From: a virus
Taxonomy: Duplodnaviria; Caudoviricetes
Length of the DNA: 64,000 nt
Strand: one strand, 5' to 3'
Virus record (IMG/VR): IMGVR_UViG_3300025126_000016
Coordinates: 10,264-74,263 of that record
Made by a program: the position numbers and the translations under genes. The first letter of the stretch is position 1, and the number at the start of each line of letters is the position of its first letter. Below the pieces are notes generated by a model, which worked only from the letters and a program-made list of their open reading frames with translations, had not been told where the DNA came from and ran no database searches. This document shows, piece after piece, positions 15,007 to 47,225 of the stretch.

Positions 15007-16720
15007 ACTTTTCTACGTCCTTATTTCTAAACCGGTCTCTTGGATCGTTCTGTTTACCCATATCCAGCCCAAGAATTGATAGTGTCATAGCAGTATCATT
15101 CAAATTATGCAAAAAGATATGCTCCGCAACTCGACGCGCCAATAAGGCAAAAGCCATACTATGGAAAAAGTGATCGTTTCCGTTCAACTTGACCCATTTC
15201 GGCTCCTTTTCGGGCGTTTCTTCACGCACCATATCCCTCAAGTGTGCCATTAAAGTGTCTTTATGGGAAGTGTAACCACCAATAACCGCAGCATTATTAA
15301 CTATCGAAGTTCGCACCATGTCGAGTGCGAAGGTACGATTGGCTGCGTAATAGATGAGATTACCCGCCTCGTCCTTCTTGGGTGCGAGGATAGCCTTGCC
15401 TTCATATGCGACAGGCATCATCACACCGCTGGTGTTCTCACGCAGCGAGTCTACCTCGGGAGTATAGGGATATCGGTCAGCACACATTTGCACGACGTTG
15501 TACTGCTTGGTGATTTCTGCCAGAGCAGTATGAAGCTGAGAGGAGTGGCAAGTCCTGAACAGGAACCAAGGGTCTTTCCCTTCATCTGGCTCTCCCACCA
15601 CCGTGATGTGGCATATAGCGCCCATATCGACTCCGACGAAAGCAGCAGCACTGGTCTCTACCTGACGCCCATTGGAGGCGAGGCAGGACTTGATTGCGTC
15701 TTCTGGAATCTGTGCGGAAGCGGGGCTGTAAGGCTCGCCCAACACAGTGTTGTGGAAGCCCTTCTCGTTTTCGTTCAACTTGTACTTGGCAAGCTGCTTG
15801 AAGATATACTCCAGAGAAATACGATCCGTCGAGAACGGATTAACCTTGTAGCCTCTGAAATTGTCTCTGCTCGGATGCTTGGCAACCCACTCTCTCAGGT
15901 CAGGATTATGGAGGTCCAGTCGGGAGCTACACTTGCTACACTTAACGTAAGCCTTCTTGAGATTAAGCCCCGTGATCTGCTCAGGGGTCATGTCCACCAA
16001 CTTGTCTACCTCGAAGCTGAGGTCAGGAATATGAACCCAATCGTGTTCGAACAGGGGGACTTGGTGATGGTTGCATGACTCGCAGCGTACCAAGTACATG
16101 TGCTGATCGGTCAAGGCAAAGTTCTTGTCTACGCCATATCCCATGTAGGTCGGGGTAGAGAAAGCTTGAGTGATCTTGTAGTCAGAGTTCTGCAGACGAG
16201 ACTGGAACAGACCGATCATGGCCTCGTCGGAAAGATCGAGTTCGTCGTGGAACAGGATGTCAGCGGGAATAGAGGTAGCGGGACCTTCATTACAGCCTGT
16301 GATGTAGCCCCAACTGTCTCCGATCTGGATGAGGTCCTGACGACGTACTGGCTTCTCTACCATTGGTGGGTTGAAGACATGATCGTTCTTTAGGATGGGA
16401 GAGATACGAGTCGTATAGACACGCTTGTACATGTCTTCCGTGGGCAGCGTGAAGATGCCTGATACACCGTTCATGCGGCGAAGGAAGGCAAGGAACTTGC
16501 GAACCTGAACTTCGGTCAGACCAATCTGAGAACACTTGATGACCGACATGTTCGGATGCATGTCGTTCGCAATCTGCTCTTGGAATGGATAGCGGTCGAA
16601 GTTGAAAGGCTTGCGATTGAGCGTGGTATGCTCTTTAAGCCAGTCGCCCAATGGGACTTCGTCGCCTGCGGCGAGGAACTTCGTACTGGCTTGTTTATGT
16701 AGTTCGGAAAACAGCTTCAT
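14990..16720 (-). CDS. terL: Terminase large subunit (lambda gpA-like)
   Basis: YPFQEQI motif, Walker A KCSQIGLTE, Walker B LFHDELD, Zn-ribbon CxxC pairs, nuclease GVDMG and NDHFFHS. Confidence 0.93.
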   Translation of the reverse strand: MKLFSELHKQASTKFLAAGDEVPLGDWLKEHTTLNRKPFNFDRYPFQEQIANDMHPNMSVIKCSQIGLTEVQVRKFLAFLRRMNGVSGIFTLPTEDMYKRVYTTRISPILKNDHVFNPPMVEKPVRRQDLIQIGDSWGYITGCNEGPATSIPADILFHDELDLSDEAMIGLFQSRLQNSDYKITQAFSTPTYMGYGVDKNFALTDQHMYLVRCESCNHHQVPLFEHDWVHIPDLSFEVDKLVDMTPEQITGLNLKKAYVKCSKCSSRLDLHNPDLREWVAKHPSRDNFRGYKVNPFSTDRISLEYIFKQLAKYKLNENEKGFHNTVLGEPYSPASAQIPEDAIKSCLASNGRQVETSAAAFVGVDMGAICHITVVGEPDEGKDPWFLFRTCHSSQLHTALAEITKQYNVVQMCADRYPYTPEVDSLRENTSGVMMPVAYEGKAILAPKKDEAGNLIYYAANRTFALDMVRTSIVNNAAVIGGYTSHKDTLMAHLRDMVREETPEKEPKWVKLNGNDHFFHSMAFALLARRVAEHIFLHNLNDTAMTLSILGLDMGKQNDPRDRFRNKDVEKYGFGR

Positions 16721-16760
16721 TTAACTAAGTTTGCAACTTGACCTATTTTTCATGCGCGGG

Positions 16761-16789
16761 TTGACGGCTGGATTTCGGCTGTGTATATC
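16761..16789 (+). promoter_or_regulatory. Sigma70-like promoter for the terS/primase operon
   Basis: TTGACG-17 nt-TATATC. Confidence 0.6.
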
Positions 16790-16825: not shown

Positions 16826-17329
16826 ATGGAAAAATACCCAGCCATCAGCCTGACTGAGCTACAGAAGATCAAGAATGTAGTTGAGCAGGCAGAGAACGAT
16901 CCGAAATATCTCGACGGGCGAATCGCCCCTTACGACAAGCAAACTAGAGAGTTGCTAAAGAGCTTCTTCCCCGATCCCGTCGTAGCTGCTACTATAGAGG
17001 GTGGTGAGGAGAAAGGCAAGGTTGGTCGCCCGAAGAAAGGACCAGTCATTCCCATGTCTGAACTCGAAGGAGAGTTCGACGACCTTCGAAAGGAAATCCA
17101 ATCTCTCAAGACCGACGCCAAAGGGTTGGAGCCTCACGAGCGTATTCAGGTTGTAAAGACGAGAGCCGCATTGATTGAGAAAATCCTGTCCATGAAGGAA
17201 CGGATTGGTAATATCAACAGAGTAAACAAGTTCATGGCCTTAGTCATGGAGATTCTCGAAGCTGAACTTCCGCAAGAGTCGCGGCTTCGTATTATTGAGA
17301 AACTCGCCGAGTATAAAGAAGAGGAATAA
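16826..17329 (+). CDS. Putative terminase small subunit
   Basis: Helical protein divergent from terL with GRPKK and coiled-coil; assignment by context. Confidence 0.4.
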   Translation: MEKYPAISLTELQKIKNVVEQAENDPKYLDGRIAPYDKQTRELLKSFFPDPVVAATIEGGEEKGKVGRPKKGPVIPMSELEGEFDDLRKEIQSLKTDAKGLEPHERIQVVKTRAALIEKILSMKERIGNINRVNKFMALVMEILEAELPQESRLRIIEKLAEYKEEE

Positions 17330-17331
17330 TT

Positions 17332-19794
17332 GTGACAGTTTTTGGAACACACGCACCCCAGTATTGGGCAGTAGGACTGCCTGTCATTCCGCTAAAACCA
17401 TTTGACTCTCCAGAGAAGGGTGCCGGTAAGGCTCCCATTCTTCCTGACTGGACTCGCTACGGCACTCAGCAGCCAAGCCAGCTTGAGAAGGCCATGTGGG
17501 TCAAGGCATACCCTAACCACAACATCGGACTTCCTTTTGGTGCTGCCTCTGGTCTTTGTGCTATCGATATCGATACCGAAGACGAGGACCTGATCGCTGC
17601 CATTCTGGAGGTGCTGCCTCCTACGCCGTGGACCCGTATTGGTGCCAAGGGTATGGGCTTGATCTACAAGTGGTCTGGACAACGTAACTTCAAGCTGCGT
17701 GGCGAGGAAGGCGGGATGATTCTCGAATTCCTCGGCATGGGCAACCAGATGGTTGTACCACCTTCGATCCACCCTGATACGAAGAAGCCTTACACTGCCG
17801 ACAACAACCTCTATGATGTCATGGATCAAATCCAACCGCTGCCTAACGACATCGATCAGAAGCTCCGTGAGCTTCTCGGGGACAAGGGCTTCAAGGTAAA
17901 CAAGGGTACTCGCTCTGGTCCTGTGGATGTCGTGCCGGAAGGTGAACGTGATGTCCAGATGATCCGTCATGCTGGCTATCTTGCTCGTGTCGTTCTTGGC
18001 ATGGACAAGTCTGCTCAGTTCAGTCTTGCCGATGCTATTGAGCAGATGACCCACTGGGTTCGCACGTACACTGCCTCAGTGTCTGGCGATGACATGGACC
18101 CCGGGAAAGGCGTAGCCAAGCTGCTTGAGTTCTTGGTCAAGGACCTTGAAAAGGGCAAGTCTCTTCCAGAAGGTTGGGATGCTGACCTTGATGAGAAGTG
18201 GGAAGAGAATGACACGATCAAACTTATCCGTGAGAAAAATCAGGTCTCACGTTGGACCGTTACGAAGGCTCGTGAATGGCTCAGCGGTAAGATCGCCGAA
18301 CGACCGAATGACGACGATTGGGCTATGGCTCGTGTTCAGGAGCTTCTCTCGCTTGTTGCGAAGGATGATAAATTTTCTGAAATGGATTTTCGTGCACTGA
18401 TCGGCTTCATCCAGAAGTCGGCTGGCAATGATAACCTTAAGTTTGGTAAAGCTGATCTTCTGCAGGGCTACAAGACAGCCAAGCGTGAGGCCGAGGGTGG
18501 TGAGGATTGGGAAGACCATGAAACCATTGCTCGTGCCGTGCTTGAACAGATTGAACGAATTGGCGAGCTACGTTTCGACAAGGATCGTTTTTGGCAGTGG
18601 AATGGCTCGTGTTTCAAGCACATGCCTCACGAAGATATTTACATGGAGATTGCTAACAATGTTAAAGGGTCGAAACTTGTTCAACGACATAACGATTACG
18701 CCAGTATCACGAAGGTCCTCGAACGTATGTGTCGTAAGCCACTCGGTGAAGCCTACGAGACTGGTATCAATTTTGCTAATGGTTGGGTTGGGGAAGACCT
18801 TGTGGTCTTGGATCACTCGGCGAAATACGGAGCTACATTCACCCTTCCGTTTGAATACAAACCCGAGCTTGCATCGCGGGCTAATCGATTCTTCGAGTTC
18901 CTCGGCGACTGTTGGGGCAACGAAGATGATTTCCAAGACAGGGTCAAATGTCTCCAAGAGGCATTTGCCGCAACCCTGTTCGGAATCGCTACGGAGTATC
19001 AGAGAGCATTCCTCCTCGTAGGCAAGGCAGGCACGGGTAAGACCGTGATGCTGGACATCCTGGAGGCTCTGGTTCCACCCGAGGGGGTAGCTTCGCTATC
19101 ACCCGAAGTCTGGGGCAAGCAGTTCTCTCAGGTCAGCTTGATCGGCAAGGTGGTAAACATCTGCCCCGAGCTTCCCGAGAACGGGGTGATCGCCGGTAAC
19201 TCGTTCAAGGCCGTGGTTGAAGGTTCTCCGCAGGAGACTGAATACAAGGGTCGTGACAAGTTTCGCTATCGTCCCAAGTCTGCTCACTGGTTCGGCTCTA
19301 ACTTCATGCCGATCAGTCGTGATACCAGTCGTGGTTTTACTCGTCGCTGGATCATGCTGGACTTCCATAACGTCGTGCCAGAGAAGCAGCGTATCAAGAA
19401 CCTTGCTGACAGCATCATTGCCGATGAGCGTGAGGCTATCGTGGCTTGGGCACTTGAAGGTCTGGAACGGTTGCGTAAGCAGGGTGATTATACCAAGCCT
19501 GCTTCGCACAAGAGACGTATGGAGCAGTTGCGCCGCATCAATAACTCGGTCAAGGCTTTCCTTGATGCAAACACCAACGTCATCATGAACGAAGGTGGAG
19601 TGACGATGATGCGTGAACTCTATGACCAGTACAACTTCCATCAGAAGGATATTGGTCGTGGTACACCTGTGTCATACGAGCGGTTCGGGCAGATGCTCGA
19701 AGACCTCGACTTTGCAGTTGAAATGGAGCCTGATGGCATGGGTCACAGGGATTGGGTAGTCAAAGGCGTGAGCCTCAAGCGTGGAGCAGATTGA
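17332..19794 (+). CDS. Bifunctional primase-polymerase fused to D5-like SF3 helicase
   Basis: N-terminal Prim-Pol (NIGLPFG...AIDID, VVPPSIHP); Walker A GKAGTGKT; D5 motifs. Confidence 0.92.
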   Translation: MTVFGTHAPQYWAVGLPVIPLKPFDSPEKGAGKAPILPDWTRYGTQQPSQLEKAMWVKAYPNHNIGLPFGAASGLCAIDIDTEDEDLIAAILEVLPPTPWTRIGAKGMGLIYKWSGQRNFKLRGEEGGMILEFLGMGNQMVVPPSIHPDTKKPYTADNNLYDVMDQIQPLPNDIDQKLRELLGDKGFKVNKGTRSGPVDVVPEGERDVQMIRHAGYLARVVLGMDKSAQFSLADAIEQMTHWVRTYTASVSGDDMDPGKGVAKLLEFLVKDLEKGKSLPEGWDADLDEKWEENDTIKLIREKNQVSRWTVTKAREWLSGKIAERPNDDDWAMARVQELLSLVAKDDKFSEMDFRALIGFIQKSAGNDNLKFGKADLLQGYKTAKREAEGGEDWEDHETIARAVLEQIERIGELRFDKDRFWQWNGSCFKHMPHEDIYMEIANNVKGSKLVQRHNDYASITKVLERMCRKPLGEAYETGINFANGWVGEDLVVLDHSAKYGATFTLPFEYKPELASRANRFFEFLGDCWGNEDDFQDRVKCLQEAFAATLFGIATEYQRAFLLVGKAGTGKTVMLDILEALVPPEGVASLSPEVWGKQFSQVSLIGKVVNICPELPENGVIAGNSFKAVVEGSPQETEYKGRDKFRYRPKSAHWFGSNFMPISRDTSRGFTRRWIMLDFHNVVPEKQRIKNLADSIIADEREAIVAWALEGLERLRKQGDYTKPASHKRRMEQLRRINNSVKAFLDANTNVIMNEGGVTMMRELYDQYNFHQKDIGRGTPVSYERFGQMLEDLDFAVEMEPDGMGHRDWVVKGVSLKRGAD

Positions 19795-23801: not shown

Positions 23802-23887
23802 TGGTGCGTCTGGGAGGACTCGAACCTCCAAAGGTATCTGTGTTTGAAACAGTGCCGTATTCCAGTTCCGACTTAGCCCACAGACGC
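23802..23887 (-). tRNA. trnL: tRNA-Leu(CAA), expanded D region and shortened variable arm
   Basis: GCGTCTG/CAGACGC acceptor, A73-CCA, loop TTCAAAC, T-arm GGAGG-TTCGAGT-CCTCC. Confidence 0.8.
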
Positions 23888-23892
23888 GAAAA

Positions 23893-23978
23893 TGGTAGGA
23901 GCGGCGAGACTCGAACTCGCAAAGGTCACCGCTTCTAAGGCGGCGGGGTATTCCATTTTCCACTTAGCCCACGCTCCC
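23893..23978 (-). tRNA. trnL: tRNA-Leu(TAG), expanded D region and shortened variable arm
   Basis: GGGAGCG/CGCTCCT acceptor, loop CTTAGAA, A73-CCA. Confidence 0.85.
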
Positions 23979-23992
23979 ACATGGTTTTGGAT

Positions 23993-24077
23993 TGGTCCGT
24001 GGGTGTGGACTCGAACCACTCCCGTTTCCGGTCACGTTTTACAGACGATCTGCTGGAACCCCCAGCTTTACCCACGG
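23993..24077 (-). tRNA. trnY: tRNA-Tyr(GTA), atypical (C1-G72)
   Basis: CCGTGGG/CCCACGG acceptor, loop CTGTAAA, variable stem CCG-GAAA-CGG, A73-CCA. Confidence 0.75.
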
Positions 24078-24081
24078 ATTT

Positions 24082-24172
24082 TGGAGGAAGCAGCTGGTCC
24101 CTATCCAGATGCCATATCTCAGGCACGTACGGATTAGCAATCCGTCCCAGACAGGTGTCTGGTTCTGCTTCC
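24082..24172 (-). tRNA. trnS: tRNA-Ser(GCT), atypical T-loop and D-arm
   Basis: GGAAGCA/TGCTTCC acceptor, ACGGA-TTGCTAA-TCCGT anticodon arm, long variable arm, T-loop ATAGGGA, U73-CCA. Confidence 0.7.
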
Positions 24173-24182
24173 GTGTCAATGT

Positions 24183-24239
24183 TGGAGGAGGGTAGAGGAA
24201 TCGAACCCCTAGGGATTTCAAGACCCGTTTGCACCCTCC
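24183..24239 (-). tRNA. 57-nt tRNA-Ser(TGA)-like RNA lacking D-arm and variable arm
   Basis: GGAGGGT/ACCCTCC acceptor, loop CTTGAAA, T-arm AGGGG-TTCGATT-CCTCT, U73-CCA; only about 5 nt between acceptor and anticodon stems. Confidence 0.75.
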
Positions 24240-24264
24240 TTCGAGGGCAGACACATGCCCTCGG

Positions 24265-24318
24265 TCAGTCTAGGAGACTGAGTCGATAGGACGATAAAGG
24301 TGACAGGTTGTTTCTCAT
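24265..24318 (-). CDS. Leader peptide MRNNLSPLSSYRLSLLD (candidate attenuator uORF, probably leaderless)
   Basis: 17 codons, 10 Leu/Ser/Tyr; ATG 5 nt after the -10 box; stop 25 nt before the Ser/Ser/Tyr/Leu/Leu tRNA run. Confidence 0.7.
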   Translation of the reverse strand: MRNNLSPLSSYRLSLLD

Positions 24319-24323
24319 GGGGG

Positions 24324-24352
24324 TCAATTAGACGTTGATGGTTTCGTTGTCA
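24324..24352 (-). promoter_or_regulatory. Sigma70-like promoter for leader plus class II tRNA operon
   Basis: TTGACA-17 nt-TAATTG on minus strand, predicted +1 at or next to the leader AUG. Confidence 0.65.
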
Positions 24353-39509: not shown

Positions 39510-39643
39510 TCTTATTGTCCGAAAGTTTGCTCGTGAGAATGAGCTACCCACCCTTGCAGCGACCACCAATTCGCCGAAACTGGCCGCTCGCATTCATCGT
39601 GAAATCGGCACCTAACTAACCGCTTAATCTAAAGGAAATCGAA

Positions 39644-42020: not shown

Positions 42021-42590
42021 CACTTGGAAACAGGTGCTGGAAGATATTCAGAAAGTGTGTCCCTCTGCCGTACTGGCAGGGGGCGCACTCCGAGACCTAG
42101 TGTTTGATGTCGAGGTCAAGGACTTGGATATCTTCATCGAAGCTGGCAATGAGAACGAAGCTTGGGGCAGTTTCAAAGCCTTGGGCGGGAAGATTCCTGA
42201 GCCTCAGAAAATTATGGGTGGCTTGTCCTGCATTGATGAGAGGGTGTCTACCCTCAGAGTATGCAGGAAGTTATCCTAGTCGAGGACTACGCAGGAGACA
42301 ACCCAACAGGTATCCCTATACAGTTGATCTTCGTTAACTGGAAAACGGAGCGCAGTCACGAACGGTTCGACATCGGCATCTGCCGTATCAGTTACGATGG
42401 AAGGGATGTCAGTATCTCCCGTGATTTCGAGCAAGATTCCTCGGATCAAGTGATCAACATCAGGCGGTGCGAAAATAAGTGGATGCTTGGTGCCACTATC
42501 AACAGGTATCTGAGATTGAAGAAGAAATATCCCGATTGGGAGATAAAATTGGATGGAGTAGACCTCAAGGAGGTTGACACTCATATCTGA
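42004..42590 (+). pseudogene. tRNA nucleotidyltransferase/poly(A) polymerase head-domain-like protein split into two overlapping frames
   Basis: GGALRD...KDLDIF in 42004-42279; RFDIGICRI and RYLRLKKKY in 42261-42590; -1 frame open from 42240. Confidence 0.7.
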
Positions 42591-42602
42591 TAGGCGTATA
42601 TG
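42574..42602 (+). promoter_or_regulatory. Sigma70-like promoter for tmRNA operon
   Basis: TTGACA-17 nt-TATATG. Confidence 0.75.
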
Positions 42603-42608
42603 CGCCGA

Positions 42609-42938
42609 ACCAGTCGCTTGAAGCGGCTTTGAAGTGAGGGCAAGACGCGGGGGCAGTACCCGCCGCCTCCACCAGATTGACTGATATGAGACCAATTGGA
42701 AAGTCTCTGCTAGGTCAAACCGGCGGGACGCAGGTTCAATTCCTGCTTTCAGTCAATCTGATGGGGGCGAACCAGGATCGATTGCCAAGCGGACGAGTTG
42801 TTAGGCTGTGAGCGTGGCTGCTTTGAAAAGCCAAGTTTGATAAATGCAAACGACAATGACATGCCAGTCATGAAAATGGCAATTGCGGCCTAATTAGGCA
42901 AAGCGGGGTCCAAAGGAACCTGTCAACAGAATCCCTTT
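42609..42938 (+). ncRNA. ssrA: Circularly permuted two-piece tmRNA (acceptor piece to 42674, coding piece from 42763), tag ANDNDMPVMKMAIAA
   Basis: GCGGG-GGCAGTA-CCCGC T-arm, CGCCTCC-ACCA; GGGGGCG with G3.U70; tag frame 42846-42893; alpha-type 3' element GCGGGGTCC...GGAACCTGTCAACAGAATCC. Confidence 0.92.
42680..42753 (+). ncRNA. tRNA-like cloverleaf within the tmRNA intervening segment
   Basis: ACTGATA/TTTCAGT stem, D-arm AGAC-CAATTGGAAA-GTCT, T-arm GCAGG-TTCAATT-CCTGC; imperfect anticodon arm, no CCA. Confidence 0.75.
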
Positions 42939-42966
42939 TAGTTTAACCAAGAGAAGGAATACCATT

Positions 42967-43113
42967 ATGAATCGTAAGTACGCAGTCCTTGGAGCAGCCG
43001 CTCTGGCCTTTGCCGTAGCAGCTTGTGAACCTGCTGAGGAGCAGGAAGAAGAAGTAGTAGTTGAAGCCGGTGGACCGGTTGACGCTGATGGAGCAGACGA
43101 AAATGCGAACTAA
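42967..43113 (+). CDS. Small acidic lipoprotein (48 aa)
   Basis: Hand translation MNRKYAVLGAAALAFAVAACEPAEEQEEEVVVEAGGPVDADGADENAN; lipobox VAAC; AAGGA RBS. Confidence 0.75.
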   Translation: MNRKYAVLGAAALAFAVAACEPAEEQEEEVVVEAGGPVDADGADENAN

Positions 43114-43579
43114 GATTGCCCTCATCGCTGGTGCCCTCGCCCTTGGCGTAGCTGCACCGGCCTCGGCCAATGAGTTTGGTGGCCTGTATGCCTCGGCAAC
43201 TGCCGGTGTGCAGGACGTAACTCAGGTTCCGACTGCTGACGACATCGTTTACGGTGCCAACGCCGGTGTCAACATTCCTCTGGGCGATGCAATCGTCGGC
43301 CTTGAGGCAACTGCTGACAACGTCTTCGAAGACAGCCGCGAAATCGGAGCCTCGGCCCGTCTCGGTTATACCTTCGACGACGTAATGCTGTATGGTGAAG
43401 CAGGCTACACCAACTACCGTGACGTATTCAGTCGTGAACTGGATGGTCTGCGTGTAGGTGCTGGCCTCGAATACAACATCAGCAACAACACTTTTGTGTC
43501 GGCTGAATACAGGTACACGGACTTCGAAGCTGGCGTTGGAAAACACGCTGGACTTGTTGGCCTCGGTATCCGCTTTTAA
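43103..43579 (+). CDS. Outer-membrane beta-barrel protein (OmpA/OmpW-like transmembrane domain)
   Basis: Signal peptide to APASA; amphipathic strands ARLGY, LYGEAGY, VGAGLEY, AEYRYTDF; C-terminal Phe. Confidence 0.88.
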   Translation: MRTKIALIAGALALGVAAPASANEFGGLYASATAGVQDVTQVPTADDIVYGANAGVNIPLGDAIVGLEATADNVFEDSREIGASARLGYTFDDVMLYGEAGYTNYRDVFSRELDGLRVGAGLEYNISNNTFVSAEYRYTDFEAGVGKHAGLVGLGIRF

Positions 43580-43601
43580 GTCGGCAACGACTTGTGTGTG
43601 G

Positions 43602-43631
43602 GAAAGGGGGCTTTTCAGCCCCCTTTCTTTT
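43602..43631 (+). terminator. Intrinsic terminator after OMP gene
   Basis: GAAAGGGGGCT/AGCCCCCTTTC stem plus T-tract. Confidence 0.8.
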
Positions 43632-43638
43632 GTCCAAT

Positions 43639-43720
43639 ACCCTCGTAACCAGTTCGGTCTTCTACACCGCTATCTGTAATGGAGTTGAAAATGTGGGTTC
43701 GAGTCGCACCTAGGGTTCCA
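43639..43720 (+). ncRNA. tRNA-like RNA with undetermined anticodon
   Basis: ACCCTCG/CTAGGGT acceptor, T-arm GTGGG-TTCGAGT-CGCAC, U73-CCA; core region non-canonical. Confidence 0.65.
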
Positions 43721-43743
43721 TTCTAATCTAAAAGGAAATATCT

Positions 43744-43914
43744 ATGAAGTTTGTTCTAGTCTGTGTCGCAGAAGAAGATGAAACCGGTCACGTTACCCAT
43801 GTACAGGACAGCGGAGGTTACGGTTACATGCTCTCAAACGGAGACGTTCTCGAAATCGACCTAGCCAAGGGTGAAAGTATCGACATCATTCATAGTGACG
43901 AAGAAGTAAATTAA
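43744..43914 (+). CDS. Small acidic protein (56 aa) ending 1 nt before tRNA-Thr
   Basis: MKFVLVCVAEEDETG...DEEVN, AAGGAAAT RBS. Confidence 0.65.
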   Translation: MKFVLVCVAEEDETGHVTHVQDSGGYGYMLSNGDVLEIDLAKGESIDIIHSDEEVN

Positions 43915-43915
43915 C

Positions 43916-43991
43916 GCCGGATTAGCTCAGATGGCAGAGCAGCTGATTTGTAACCAGAAGGTCGTGGGTTCGATGCCTACATCCGGCACCA
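43916..43991 (+). tRNA. trnT: tRNA-Thr(TGT)
   Basis: Canonical cloverleaf, loop TTTGTAA, CCA. Confidence 0.93.
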
Positions 43992-43995
43992 GATT

Positions 43996-44070
43996 GCGGA
44001 AGTAGCTCAGTGGTAGAGCAGGTGGTTGAAGTTCACCGTGTCAGCGGTTCGATTCCATTCTTCTGCACCA
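43996..44070 (+). tRNA. trnF: tRNA-Phe(GAA)
   Basis: Loop TTGAAGT, A73-CCA. Confidence 0.85.
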
Positions 44071-44075
44071 GATAC

Positions 44076-44150
44076 GGGCCTGTAGCTTAATGGGAGAGCA
44101 GCATCCTTGCAAGATGTTAGGTGAGAGTTCGAATCTCTCTAGGTCCACCA
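44076..44150 (+). tRNA. trnA: tRNA-Ala(TGC)
   Basis: G3.U70, loop CTTGCAA, CCA. Confidence 0.93.
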
Positions 44151-44155
44151 GACAT

Positions 44156-44233
44156 GGCCCCGAGGTCCGAAGAGTCGAGGCCTCGCACTGTCTATGCGAG
44201 TTCAAGCGGGTTCGAGTCCCGCCGGGGTCGCCA
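44156..44233 (+). tRNA. trnD: tRNA-Asp(GTC)
   Basis: Loop CTGTCTA, G73-CCA. Confidence 0.88.
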
Positions 44234-44240
44234 TGTTTGA

Positions 44241-44313
44241 GCGGGTGTGGCTATGCTAGCCAGCTGGCCTTCCAAGCCATGCCAAGAGGGTTGGATTCCC
44301 TCCATCCGCTCCA
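44241..44313 (+). tRNA. trnG: tRNA-Gly(TCC), reduced D-loop
   Basis: Loop CTTCCAA, U73-CCA; D-arm GGCTA-TGC-TAGCC; T-loop TTGGATT. Confidence 0.8.
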
Positions 44314-44317
44314 ATGT

Positions 44318-44392
44318 TGCACGGTCGTCTAATCGGTAAGACGCTCGACTCTGACTCCTGAAACGTAGGTTCGAACCCTGCCCGTGCATCCA
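44318..44392 (+). tRNA. trnQ: tRNA-Gln(CTG)
   Basis: U1-A72, loop CTCTGAC, CCA. Confidence 0.85.
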
Positions 44393-44393
44393 C

Positions 44394-44467
44394 TGCCCCT
44401 TCGTCTAGTGGTAGGACCGGAGCCTTTGAAGCTTTTAACGCTGGTTCGAATCAAGCAGGGGCATCCA
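44394..44467 (+). tRNA. trnQ: tRNA-Gln(TTG)
   Basis: U1-A72, loop CTTTGAA, CCA. Confidence 0.85.
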
Positions 44468-44530
44468 GATTTTTACGAAAATTTTTCAGAAGATTTTGGG
44501 TCGAGTTTTAGAAAGGCAAAAGTTAGAGGG

Positions 44531-44559
44531 TTGACACCTAAAAAGACCTCGTCTATATG
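44531..44559 (+). promoter_or_regulatory. Sigma70-like promoter for leader plus Met/Asn/Pro/Trp/His tRNA operon
   Basis: TTGACA-17 nt-TATATG preceded by an AT-rich tract. Confidence 0.78.
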
Positions 44560-44635
44560 ACCCTCCACGGGCCGAGGGGATTCCCATCTCCTTAATGCGG
44601 TTTAACCACCCTCGGCCCACCTATTGGAGTTAGAA

Positions 44636-44722
44636 ATGCGTTACATGAATGTAAATCATTGGCGACCCAATACACACGCATGGGTGCGACATCCCATGCG
44701 TGAACAAGCTGTCGGCGGCTAA
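44636..44722 (+). CDS. Leader peptide MRYMNVNHWRPNTHAWVRHPMREQAVGG (candidate attenuator uORF)
   Basis: GGAG RBS at 44626; 28 codons, 13 Met/Asn/His/Trp/Pro; stop inside hairpin 22 nt before tRNA-Met. Confidence 0.7.
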   Translation: MRYMNVNHWRPNTHAWVRHPMREQAVGG

Positions 44723-44744
44723 CTAACTCCCGCCGATACTCTGT

Positions 44745-44820
44745 TGCAGAGTAGAGAAGCGGCATCTCACCACCCTCATAAGGTCGGAAACCGTGGGTTC
44801 GAGTCCCACCTCTGCAACCA
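44745..44820 (+). tRNA. trnM: tRNA-Met(CAT), initiator-like D-arm
   Basis: Loop CTCATAA, TGCAGAG/CTCTGCA acceptor, A73-CCA. Confidence 0.85.
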
Positions 44821-44837
44821 TTTCCCAAAATATATGT

Positions 44838-44912
44838 TGATGCGTAGCATAATGGCAATGTACGTCACTGTTAATGACGGGGATGCAGGTTCGAGTCCTG
44901 CCGTATCAGCCA
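44838..44912 (+). tRNA. trnN: tRNA-Asn(GTT)
   Basis: U1-A72, loop CTGTTAA, G73-CCA. Confidence 0.9.
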
Positions 44913-44913
44913 T

Positions 44914-44991
44914 CTAGGAGTAGCTCAGTCTGGCCAGAGCATCCCGTTTGGGGCGGGAGGGCCGAAGGTTCGAATCCTTCCTTCTAGACCA
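44914..44991 (+). tRNA. trnP: tRNA-Pro(TGG)
   Basis: C1-G72, loop TTTGGGG, A73-CCA. Confidence 0.92.
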
Positions 44992-44992
44992 C

Positions 44993-45067
44993 AGGTCGGA
45001 GCATACGGGTTATGCCTCTTGGACTCCAAATCCGAGAGAGAGGGTTCGATTCCCTCCCCTCCTGCCA
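44993..45067 (+). tRNA. trnW: tRNA-Trp(CCA)
   Basis: Loop CTCCAAA, G73-CCA; two acceptor-stem mismatches. Confidence 0.85.
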
Positions 45068-45074
45068 TTTTCTT

Positions 45075-45281
45075 CGAGCCTTTTCCGAGGGGCTGGGAGT
45101 GCCAGAGTAGCCTTGTAGACCAGAGGAGTAGTTATCCTGCTGCCGAATAGGTTCTGGTTCGTTGGTTGTAGACCGACATTGGAATGACGAGTAGAGCCTA
45201 AGAGCCTAACTAGCTTGGAAGCGAACTCGGGGTTCAGTGCCGCCAACGAGGTAAGACTCCCAGTCACGCGGAAAGGGCTTG
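45075..45281 (+). ncRNA. Unassigned structured RNA (about 210 nt) between tRNA-Trp and tRNA-His
   Basis: Closing stems GAGCCTTTTCCG/CGGAAAGGGCTT and GGCTGGGAGT/ACTCCCAGTC; inner helices ACCAGA/TCTGGT and TCGTTGG/CCAACGA; no useful ORF. Confidence 0.65.
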
Positions 45282-45291
45282 ATCACACGGT

Positions 45292-45363
45292 GTTGTTGGT
45301 GTTAATGGTAGCATGGCCGGATGTGACCCGGCAGGTGAGGGTTCGATTCCCCACTTCAACCCA
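45292..45363 (+). tRNA. trnH: tRNA-His(GTG), G-1:C73 type, imperfect acceptor
   Basis: GCCGG-ATGTGAC-CCGGC anticodon arm, T-loop TTCGATT, C73-CCA. Confidence 0.78.
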
Positions 45364-45386
45364 ATCTTTAATCTGAAAGGAATCCT

Positions 45387-45545
45387 ATGAAACACGTTCT
45401 GATCCTGAACCCGAGTGAGGACGGGAGCTACGTCGGGGAGGCTAAGGTGCCTCTGGATAATCCCGCAGGTTTCAATGTCTCTCTGAAAGTGTGCAAGGCC
45501 ACGAAGAAAGCTATCGTGGTGTTAGACGAGAAGGTGAACCGGTGA
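45387..45545 (+). CDS. Hypothetical protein (52 aa)
   Basis: MKHVLILNPSEDG..., AAAGGA RBS. Confidence 0.65.
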   Translation: MKHVLILNPSEDGSYVGEAKVPLDNPAGFNVSLKVCKATKKAIVVLDEKVNR

Positions 45546-45818
45546 TGTTCATAATCGCAACTGACGATCTTGAGTATTACATCCCTTGGTCCCGCAAAAC
45601 TTGTGGACACACAGCCGTAGATGTGGCAAAGAAAGGTAGCCGGGGGCAACGTGCCTCGGCTATTTGATAATGAGCTTAGTGCAAAACTGGCTCTAGGCAA
45701 GTGGCTGTCTGGGCCACTCAGAGGAGTCTTTGAGGAAGACTACGGATGGTACCCTGAATCTGACACTGACCCCAATCGAAAGATAGAATGGGAGGGCAAG
45801 CTTGCCCCCGAGAAATAG
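45545..45818 (+). pseudogene. Small phage protein interrupted by two apparent +1 indels
   Basis: MFIIATDDL / SYYIPWSRKTCGHT / GGNVPRLFDNELSAKLALGKWLSG lie in three successive frames. Confidence 0.4.
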
Positions 45819-45842
45819 AACTTAATCTAATCTAAAGGAAAT

Positions 45843-47225
45843 ATGATGATTGCCCTTCGTGACTATCAGGTAAACGACCTCGCTGTTGCGATCAAGAATC
45901 CCCGCAGCTTTAACTTCTCTGAACCAGGCACTGGTAAGACGCCAGTGTTCTGTGCCCTGTCGTGGTACTACTGGACGAAGAAGGGCAAGAAGACTATCAT
46001 CGTTCAGCCCAACCACCTTCGTAACAAGAATCGTCTCGAAGTTATTCGCTTCTCGGGATTCGAACCCCATGAAGTGAAAGTGATTGAGCGTCTGGACGAG
46101 ACCCTCGGACCTCGCAAGCGCAAGAGTGTGCCCGAGGCCAACCAACAGACTGGTTACATCAACTACATCGACGATCCTGAAATCAAAGTGTTCGTCGTTG
46201 GCTTTACGTTCCTGAAAAACTATTGGAAAGAGCTAGTAGAGAAGCACCCCGAGATTGATCTGGTAGTGATCGACGAAGGCCATGAAGGCTACAAGACCTA
46301 CAACAGTAAGGCCAGCCGTGAACTCTATGCTCTCATGGATAGGACGGAAGGCTTTTACTATTGCACGGGTACGCCTATTGATGGTCGCCTCGACTCTTGC
46401 TTCACTGCTATCCATATTGTCTGCCCTCAATACTACGGCAGCTACCTTGGATTCAGGGCGCAGCATGCTGGTTTCATCGACGACTACGACAAGGTGGTGT
46501 TCTGGCAGAACGAGGAGAAAGTGACAGAAATCTTCAATCGTCACGGTGTCATTCATACGTGGGAAGAAGTCCACGGTGAAGAGAAGCGCCATGTTGAAAT
46601 CGTGGACGACATCAAGATGAATGAGAAGATGCTGGAAGCTTATACCGAGTTCGAAGAAATGGCCTGTGTCGAGCTTGAGGGTATGTTCCTCGACGGAAGT
46701 AATCCCGGAGTTGCAACGATGCGAGCGAGGCAGATCATTAACTGCCCACATATCTTTGACATCAAGGAACGCACAGCCAAGCATGATTACCTTGAAGGGT
46801 TGGCTCAGCCGGGTATGGTTGTGTTCGGGTCGATGCCTGAGGAAGTTGAAGCCAACGCCGAAATCCTGCGAGAGCTAGGATTGTCGGTCGGGGTAATGCA
46901 CGGAGGGGTGAGCAATGCCAAGCGCGTAGAGATTGATCGTGCCTACGTAGCTGGTGAGCTTGACGTTATCTGTGCAACCCCGGCCGTGGCCGCGACTGGT
47001 TGGAACTGGCAGCGGACCAAGATCATCGTGTTCACTTCGCTGTCCTACAGCGACTCCAATGTTGAACAGGCTATCAAGCGAGGAGAGCGAGAGGCTCGGG
47101 ATGAACATCTGCAAGTCTACTTCCTTGAGTATCTAAAGAGTGTGGACCAGAAGGTCCGTAAGATCGTGGTGAAGAAAGAAAACCTGAGCCATACGGTTAT
47201 GGAAAATGTGAAAGGATTGAGCTAA
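45843..47225 (+). CDS. SF2 (SNF2-like) DNA helicase
   Basis: EPGTGKT Walker A, VIDEGH, TGTP, ATGWNWQ and EQAIKRGER motifs. Confidence 0.92.
   Translation: MMIALRDYQVNDLAVAIKNPRSFNFSEPGTGKTPVFCALSWYYWTKKGKKTIIVQPNHLRNKNRLEVIRFSGFEPHEVKVIERLDETLGPRKRKSVPEANQQTGYINYIDDPEIKVFVVGFTFLKNYWKELVEKHPEIDLVVIDEGHEGYKTYNSKASRELYALMDRTEGFYYCTGTPIDGRLDSCFTAIHIVCPQYYGSYLGFRAQHAGFIDDYDKVVFWQNEEKVTEIFNRHGVIHTWEEVHGEEKRHVEIVDDIKMNEKMLEAYTEFEEMACVELEGMFLDGSNPGVATMRARQIINCPHIFDIKERTAKHDYLEGLAQPGMVVFGSMPEEVEANAEILRELGLSVGVMHGGVSNAKRVEIDRAYVAGELDVICATPAVAATGWNWQRTKIIVFTSLSYSDSNVEQAIKRGEREARDEHLQVYFLEYLKSVDQKVRKIVVKKENLSHTVMENVKGLS

Follow-up and report, generated by a model that had tools for sequence, protein, structure and literature searches.

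A short leader reading frame matched in codon composition to a downstream five-tRNA operon in a phage family

The 64,000-nucleotide (nt) stretch of viral DNA analysed here, hereafter the window, comes from an IMG/VR virus record of 74 kb and carries on its plus strand a block of transfer RNA (tRNA) genes for Met, Asn, Pro, Trp and His. This block is preceded by a 28-codon open reading frame (ORF), MRYMNVNHWRPNTHAWVRHPMREQAVGG (ATG at 44636 to TAA at 44722), in which 12 of the 27 non-initiator codons specify the same five amino acids. Homologous ORFs are present in seven other lineages and, as judged from the comparison of their sequences, the leader ORF and its fit to the downstream tRNA set are not the product of chance. 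The ORF is probably translated, and the explanation that we favour, for and against which we find the scales about even, is that it represents a translated, codon-matched leader of the Met-Asn-Pro-Trp-His tRNA operon, coupled to the decoding of those codons.

Codon match of the leader and its recurrence

The leader is located in a 277-nt gap (44468-44744) which, in the ARAGORN predictions, follows the tRNA genes for Thr, Phe, Ala, Asp, Gln and Gln and precedes the five-tRNA block, formed by Met(CAU), Asn, Pro, Trp, a spacer of about 220 nt, and His. A Shine-Dalgarno (SD) sequence, GGAG (44626-44629, plus strand), lies 6 nt before the ATG, and tRNA-Met begins 22 nt past the leader stop. All 12 Met, Asn, Pro, Trp and His codons (set codons) fall within codons 4-21, and none of the 571 short ORFs of the window is as rich in them. 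For the ranking, all ORFs that end close to the tRNA were scored from each of their starts, and the set was placed among the 15,504 possible five-residue sets; it ranks 7 of 15,504, with the best ORF and start chosen. As the CAU tRNA could be Ile2, Met was also omitted, which gives a rank of 4 of 4845, and omission of His gives 45 of 4845. The other five frames of the leader stretch contain 3-8 such codons, those of the reverse strand 5-8 of 28. An earlier note on this DNA had proposed the enrichment; its count of 12 of 27 stands, and the excess proves specific to the ORF frame, but the binomial estimate (p = 1.7e-4 against the window gene background of 14.5%, 5.7e-4 against 10 of 61 codons) overstates it, since under the more conservative dinucleotide shuffling of the ORF itself 7.0 set codons are expected and p is just 0.012.

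Relatives were obtained through IMG/VR and JGI scans (L002 and L003) and through a helicase protein search followed by contig look-ups (L055-L059); helicase identity is 70-87% for these seven further lineages and 70-78% for L055-L059. Neither DNA patterns of the peptide core nor scans of IMG/VR and GTDB returned relatives beyond L002, L003 and one duplicate. Each of the eight lineages has a short ORF whose end lies directly upstream of the first tRNA gene in the Met-Asn-Pro-Trp-His block or, in L003, inside that gene. Besides the window peptide, the leader peptides are MRNVLNNIADADGWGGLSHRPNTPAWVRHPMREGWRD in L002, MRNELTNWRPNTPAWVRHPMREGYVD in L055, MKNMNLHWRPNRTAQPFGG in L056, MKNMTFHWRPNRTDAHPAEGVRI in L057, MTNMSNHTWRPHPHNP in L058, MNYHNDITAPRWHNPVGLHHEGWGGD in L059 and MKNHRVSLRQIRWHNPLWGLSIKLGVAG in L003. 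They range from 15 to 37 residues and have in common a W-R-P-N or W-H-N-P core, on which their homology is based, the remainder being largely unalignable. Set codons amount to 12/27, 13/36, 10/25, 8/18, 8/22, 11/15, 11/25 and 7/27 in the window, L002, L055, L056, L057, L058, L059 and L003, respectively; the corresponding set ranks of 15,504 are 6, 28, 23, 2, 8, 2, 29 and 747, thus between 2 and 29 in seven of the eight. Combination by Fisher's method, with four sequence types taken as roughly independent, yields p = 2.6e-10 from the set ranks and 1.3e-5 from the dinucleotide shuffles.

The reading frame remains open in both the window and L002, although the two are separated by in-frame indels of +30 and -3 nt. 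Their leaders are 69% identical overall and include a 42-nt block with two nucleotide differences; in L002 the ORF is listed as a gene by gene callers. The distance between stop codon and tRNA-Met is 19-38 nt across lineages, the L003 stop lying inside the tRNA, and a GC-rich hairpin over the last ORF codons is common to all of them. In three other contigs of the window's phage the leader is identical. Upstream of the unit, the neighbour varies (tRNA-Gln in the window, four genes in L002, two genes in L003), and lineage L012 is devoid of the whole promoter-leader-tRNA unit; thus promoter, leader and tRNAs behave as one module. Because eight lineages keep the compositional bias while most of the sequence and the length change, the match cannot be ascribed to chance, and the earlier note's opinion on this point is reinforced both by this recurrence and by a second matched leader in the same genome.

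This second leader, at about 24.3 kb within the minus-strand region 23802-24352 that also holds its tRNA-like genes, is unrelated in sequence and comprises a leaderless 17-codon ORF, MRNNLSPLSSYRLSLLD, behind CTTGAC-N17-CTAATT. It is followed by five tRNA-like genes whose anticodons, read by eye, are Ser UGA, Ser GCU, Tyr GUA, Leu UAG and Leu CAA; ARAGORN called Leu(UAG) alone among them, in a permissive run only, and Rfam scores two of them, weakly. The Leu/Ser/Tyr set ranks 3 of 1140, is specific to the frame and has a shuffle p of 0.0034, so that a match to a different amino-acid set, as the earlier note had maintained, is borne out here too. This leader was not found in two further relatives, G001 and G002. 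The first of its five tRNA-like genes has no D-arm.

Promoter and RNA structure of the leader

The predicted promoter, TTGAC-N17-CTATAT (44531-44558, plus strand), has its -35 element at 44531-44535 and its -10 element at 44553-44558, and no second perfect copy occurs in the window; at a tolerance of one mismatch, five matches are present versus 0.71 expected. It exactly fits the sigma-70 consensus of Sinorhizobium meliloti, CTTGAC-N17-CTATAT (PMC2873474). The sequence TTGACA-17-TATATG, indicated by the earlier note as the promoter, is indeed present (44531-44536 and 44554-44559), but its -10 element is better read as CTATAT, one position upstream; a scan for E. coli-type promoters passed over the leader promoter, whose hexamer ends in G. 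The promoter motif occurs at the same position in six of the eight lineages, being perfect in L002 and L055 and having one mismatch in L056, L057 and L058. In these last three the ORF begins about 10 nt past the -10 element, and their leader ORFs are probably leaderless, without the 5' hairpin and the SD sequence of the window. Two minus-strand promoters of the window (22994-22960 and 24350-24318) are followed by CCCCCATG 5-8 nt past the -10 element, which suggests that leaderless mRNAs are used by the phage.

The leader RNA is predicted to fold far more strongly than its shuffles (z = -4.8; a second z-score is -5.7). A 5'-terminal hairpin of 10 base pairs (bp) with a 30-nt loop, H1 (44569-44578/44609-44618), starts about 2 nt past the predicted transcript start; it is kept in L002 with one compensatory change, from G-C to A-U, and is not found in L056-L058. 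In H2 the SD region, TATTGG, pairs with CCAATA inside the ORF (44667-44672), and an alternative 8-bp helix can form between GGAGUUAG, which comprises the SD, and CUAACUCC directly past the stop, the alternative partner being CTAACTCC at 44723-44730; the SD sequence can thus be sequestered either by ORF codons or by the stop region. H3 is a perfect 10-bp hairpin (44675-44684/44693-44702) spanning codons 14-22 (H A W V R H P M R) and is identical, nucleotide by nucleotide, in L002 and L055. H4 (approximately 44710-44718/44730-44738) exposes an 11-nt loop, CUAACUAACUC, the first UAA of which is the stop codon. When each lineage was folded separately, the loop CUAACUAAC was found on different stems in four of them (window, L002, L055 and L057); since CTAACTAAC also terminates an ordinary gene at 39612, this word may be simply a two-frame stop signal. 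Finally, in H5 the last bases of the leader, TACTCTG (44737-44743), pair with CAGAGTA (44747-44753) at positions 3-9 of tRNA-Met, an arrangement termed anti-acceptor. The 10-bp hairpin, the SD sequence, the 28-codon ORF, the hairpin inside it and the TATTGG/CCAATA pairing, all reported in the earlier note, were located in the sequence. A derivation of the leader from the downstream tRNAs, or a complementarity to them, was discarded, the matches being just random ones of 7-9 nt.

tRNA genes, other blocks and genomic surroundings

The five genes of the operon, all on the plus strand, are tRNA(CAU) at 44745-44820, called Met, Ile2 being also possible, tRNA-Asn(GUU) at 44838-44912, tRNA-Pro(UGG) at 44914-44991, tRNA-Trp(CCA) at 44993-45067, called by ARAGORN with a weak Rfam match, and tRNA-His(GUG) at 45289-45362, called by ARAGORN and scoring 22 bits in Rfam, under the gathering score. 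Between Trp and His lies the conserved spacer RNA of about 220 nt (45068-45288, plus strand), for which no Rfam family match was obtained; it is common to the window and L002 (3931-4130), and its ends, GGGCTGGGAG and CTCCCAGTC, are able to pair. In L055-L058, tRNA-Trp and tRNA-His are nearly adjoining instead. In L055 (2980-3291) and L056 (about 2110-2420) the block is split by an HNH-type ORF with a CANCH motif between tRNA-Met and tRNA-Asn, and further HNH ORFs occupy tRNA gaps of G001 (16361-16765 and 18263-18628).

Upstream, the window contains a degenerate tRNA-Gly(UCC) at 44241-44313, recognised only by Rfam, at 31.8 bits, and by an ARAGORN run with a relaxed threshold, versus a normal tRNA-Gly(UCC) in the clusters of relatives. 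Neither a degenerate tRNA nor a known RNA family was detected in the 277-nt gap by Rfam (E up to 10) or by permissive ARAGORN. A third leader family precedes the Glu-Ile-Val(-Thr) blocks of relatives (G001 17153-17280, reverse strand; L058 1242-1328; L059 57-119); it lies behind a perfect copy of the leader promoter, the run VVVRE(RE)IQQ is conserved in it, and as a whole ORF its rank is 0.23-0.43. The window has no Glu-Ile-Val block.

A phage-encoded, permuted transfer-messenger RNA (tmRNA) of the alpha type is found at 42570-42940, and one is present in each of G001 and G002; by the window copy, a near-consensus promoter, TTGACACTCATATCTGATAGGCGTATAT, begins at 42574. The S. meliloti-type promoter and the alpha-type tmRNA point to a probably alphaproteobacterial host of this uncultured marine phage. 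The phage is present in at least 63 assembly blocks, and Tara samples contain the L002 type. The 75-kb contig L043 (JAGVDA010000266.1), belonging to the L003 phage, is binned in a public metagenome-assembled genome labelled Thermosynechococcus sp.; the label is probably a binning artefact and not a clue to the host.

Beside the tRNA block of relatives are genes for the RNA repair ligase RtcB, a PF09414 RNA ligase and the peptidyl-tRNA hydrolase PTH2 (L044 4043-5275; L056 3261-4490; L057 330-4188), neighbours that would fit with a theme of tRNA damage and repair. No RtcB gene occurs in the window between tRNA-His and the helicase.

Possible function of the leader

If the leader is coupled to decoding, a shortage of the cognate charged tRNAs would slow the ribosomes translating it at Met, Asn, Pro, Trp and His codons. 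Such a shortage might arise at an early stage of infection, from a poor fit to the tRNA pool of the host or from host defences that cleave tRNAs. The position of the ribosome would then change the fate of the nascent tRNA precursor, the candidate outputs being melting of the ORF-end hairpin beside the ribonuclease P (RNase P) site, access of Rho, and stability of the leader. As the distance from stop codon to tRNA is short, a terminating ribosome is expected to extend within a few nt of the RNase P site, which suggests that translation of the leader may be coupled to folding or processing of the precursor; sequestration of the SD sequence, as modelled, would fit with translation chiefly by the first, co-transcriptional ribosome. 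In this manner the mini-gene may let the phage gauge its own tRNA supply.

Two groups of results weigh against such a role. The first concerns the switch. No terminator-like site is present in 42400-46000 or in L059, a hairpin followed by a U-tract is absent in every lineage, the ORF-end hairpins having U-poor tails in all folds, and this absence points to an output step other than a classical terminator/antiterminator. In a thermodynamic model in which the ribosome footprint was masked codon by codon, H2 and H4 were exchanged for the helix between SD and stop region, and no structure altering the fate of the tRNA appeared, H5 and the tRNA fold being unchanged: H5 forms wherever the footprint is placed, and the cloverleaf prevails when the full-length tRNA is included. 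H5 shows one compensatory change in L002; L003 no longer has it, nor does L057, despite an identical tRNA 5' end. On these grounds, namely formation at all ribosome positions, prevalence of the cloverleaf in the full transcript and lack of conservation, a ribosome-controlled anti-acceptor switch was rejected. Thus, the anti-acceptor pairing described in the earlier note is feasible in the window and disappears in two lineages, and the hairpin that it placed over the stop codon exists in the window, but in L057 the stop lies upstream of the loop. As for Rho, a consistent C-rich, G-poor tract was not found across lineages: the C/G counts per 30 nt near the stop are 14/1 in L002, where alone the tract is clear, and 10-12/6 in the window, and L003 has no such tract. 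Altogether, an anti-acceptor or attenuator mechanism is not supported.

The second group concerns composition and generality. The hairpin stems consist of CAUG, UGG and CCC words, which code for Met, His, Trp and Pro on either strand, and together with the shuffle expectation this indicates that part of the codon excess is local composition. The eight ORFs, being homologous, are not independent samples, and both the W-R-P-N core and the 42-nt near-identical block would also suit a functional peptide or an RNA motif. Since the tRNA set is invariant among the eight lineages, a co-variation of composition with tRNA identity is not demonstrable inside the family, and the case for it relies on the second leader of the same genome. 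No matched leader precedes the third block of the window (Thr-Phe-Ala-Asp-Gly-Gln-Gln; rank 0.60), the other tRNA blocks in the phage family rank 0.2-1.0, and three cultured phages of alphaproteobacteria, namely Erythrobacter phage L02, Rhizobium phage V1VFA-S, which carries a Met-Asn-Trp block, and Phaeobacter phage MD18, gave roughly uniform ranks with no match. A quick application of the rank statistic to Cellulophaga phage phi38:1 yielded 0.06, 0.30 and 0.009. The proposal of the earlier note that the tRNAs are grouped in separately sensed modules is therefore acceptable in that the unit acts as a module; its extension to all tRNAs is too broad, given the unmatched third block, and sensing itself is a putative property.

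Several of these observations would be accommodated by a structured 5' leader or processing cassette that senses nothing, in which the ORF is incidental or tolerated, its composition is a by-product of the CAUG, UGG and CCC stems, and the hairpins serve transcript stability, antitermination or orderly processing by RNase P and RNase E. This alternative is, in our opinion, unlikely but to be taken seriously. The two folding z-scores, the identity of the H3 stem in three lineages and the retention of the H4 loop on differing stems, even in L057 with its stop upstream of the loop, speak for it; so do the somewhat rich reverse-strand frames, a shuffle expectation of 7.0 set codons and not 4, and the finding of neither a terminator nor a switch. 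However, every lineage tested has its highest enrichment in the ORF frame, and the enrichment holds without these stems in L058 (11/15), L059 (11/25) and L056 (8/18); moreover, the frame stays open despite the indels, and the leaderless lineages, which are without H1 and the SD hairpin, still keep the ORF.

The peptide itself could be the functional product, for instance a binder of a host factor built on the W-R-P-N/W-H-N-P motif, merely co-transcribed with the tRNAs and rich in Trp, His, Asn, Pro and Met for reasons of its own activity. The core motif in all eight lineages, the block RPNT.AWVRHPMRE, almost invariant in three, the good SD sequence and the recognition by gene callers agree with this possibility, but the length and all but four residues vary freely while the composition is kept, and no hydrophobic or foldable segment is present. 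Furthermore, the enriched residues are exactly the five adjoining isotypes, the second, unrelated leader fits its own, different tRNAs, and a search of 1.84 billion representative proteins gave no relatives outside the same phage, apart from one spurious match to a repeat protein; we consequently consider a functional micropeptide quite improbable. Coincidence from a scan of very many windows, which could appeal to the single-ORF p of about 0.01 for an ORF chosen after the fact and to the silence of most other tRNA blocks, is already unlikely and deserves hardly any credence, in view of a bias seen in eight lineages with largely unalignable sequences, significant by Fisher's method even with shuffles, and of the second matched leader.

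A translated leader coupled to decoding invites comparison with known systems. Multivalent attenuators control enterobacterial amino-acid operons, as thrL with its Thr and Ile codons and the Ile/Leu/Val leader of ilvGMEDA, beside hisL, trpL and pheL. The pheL leader attenuator has been described (PMC3082878). As in leader-peptide attenuators, the phage has a short ORF between the promoter and the regulated genes, hairpins overlapping the ORF, an SD sequence that can be sequestered and, presumably, translation mainly by the first ribosome; a share of 40-70% of codons for the amino acids concerned represents a further likeness. Unlike attenuators, the phage leader stands before tRNA genes instead of genes for biosynthetic enzymes and samples five amino acids, a U-tract terminator or a demonstrable antiterminator is lacking, and some lineages are leaderless. 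The search for a terminator was negative, and for this reason the phage leader is not classed as a leader-peptide attenuator. Control of the tnaC type relies on a ribosome that is held close to the stop codon and there blocks Rho. The phage leader is similar in having a short ORF that ends beside the regulated region, with no need for an intrinsic terminator, but no consistent Rho-loading tract was found in it, the downstream RNA is highly structured tRNA, and no known arrest motif is shown. The sensing of tRNA status proposed here, and the control of translation genes, are reminiscent of T-box riboswitches; these, however, bind tRNA directly, without the involvement of translation. No Rfam match to a T-box was found in 42400-45500 at E up to 10, and the phage leader is not a T-box.

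A more specific version of coupling to decoding, speculative and in our estimate doubtful, is a tRNA-supply sensor without a terminator: the speed of the pioneer ribosome over the set codons, with W-R-P-N as a slow spot, would set the state of the ORF-end hairpin, and thereby gate transcription, maturation or survival of the five tRNAs. The hairpin, 19-38 nt from the RNase P site, would open or close, and the sister leader would act likewise for Ser, Tyr and Leu. If true, such a sensor would allow the phage to replace the tRNAs that its host lacks or destroys by an output step unlike that of any known attenuator. The reasons for the carriage of tRNAs by phages, and the timing of their expression, have been debated for decades, codon compensation being set against escape from tRNA-cleaving defences (PMC10264068). 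A leader mini-gene whose codons enumerate the tRNAs following it would imply that phages measure decoding capacity isotype by isotype, adjusting their own tRNA supply; full-text literature searches returned no account of such leader ORFs matching tRNA genes.

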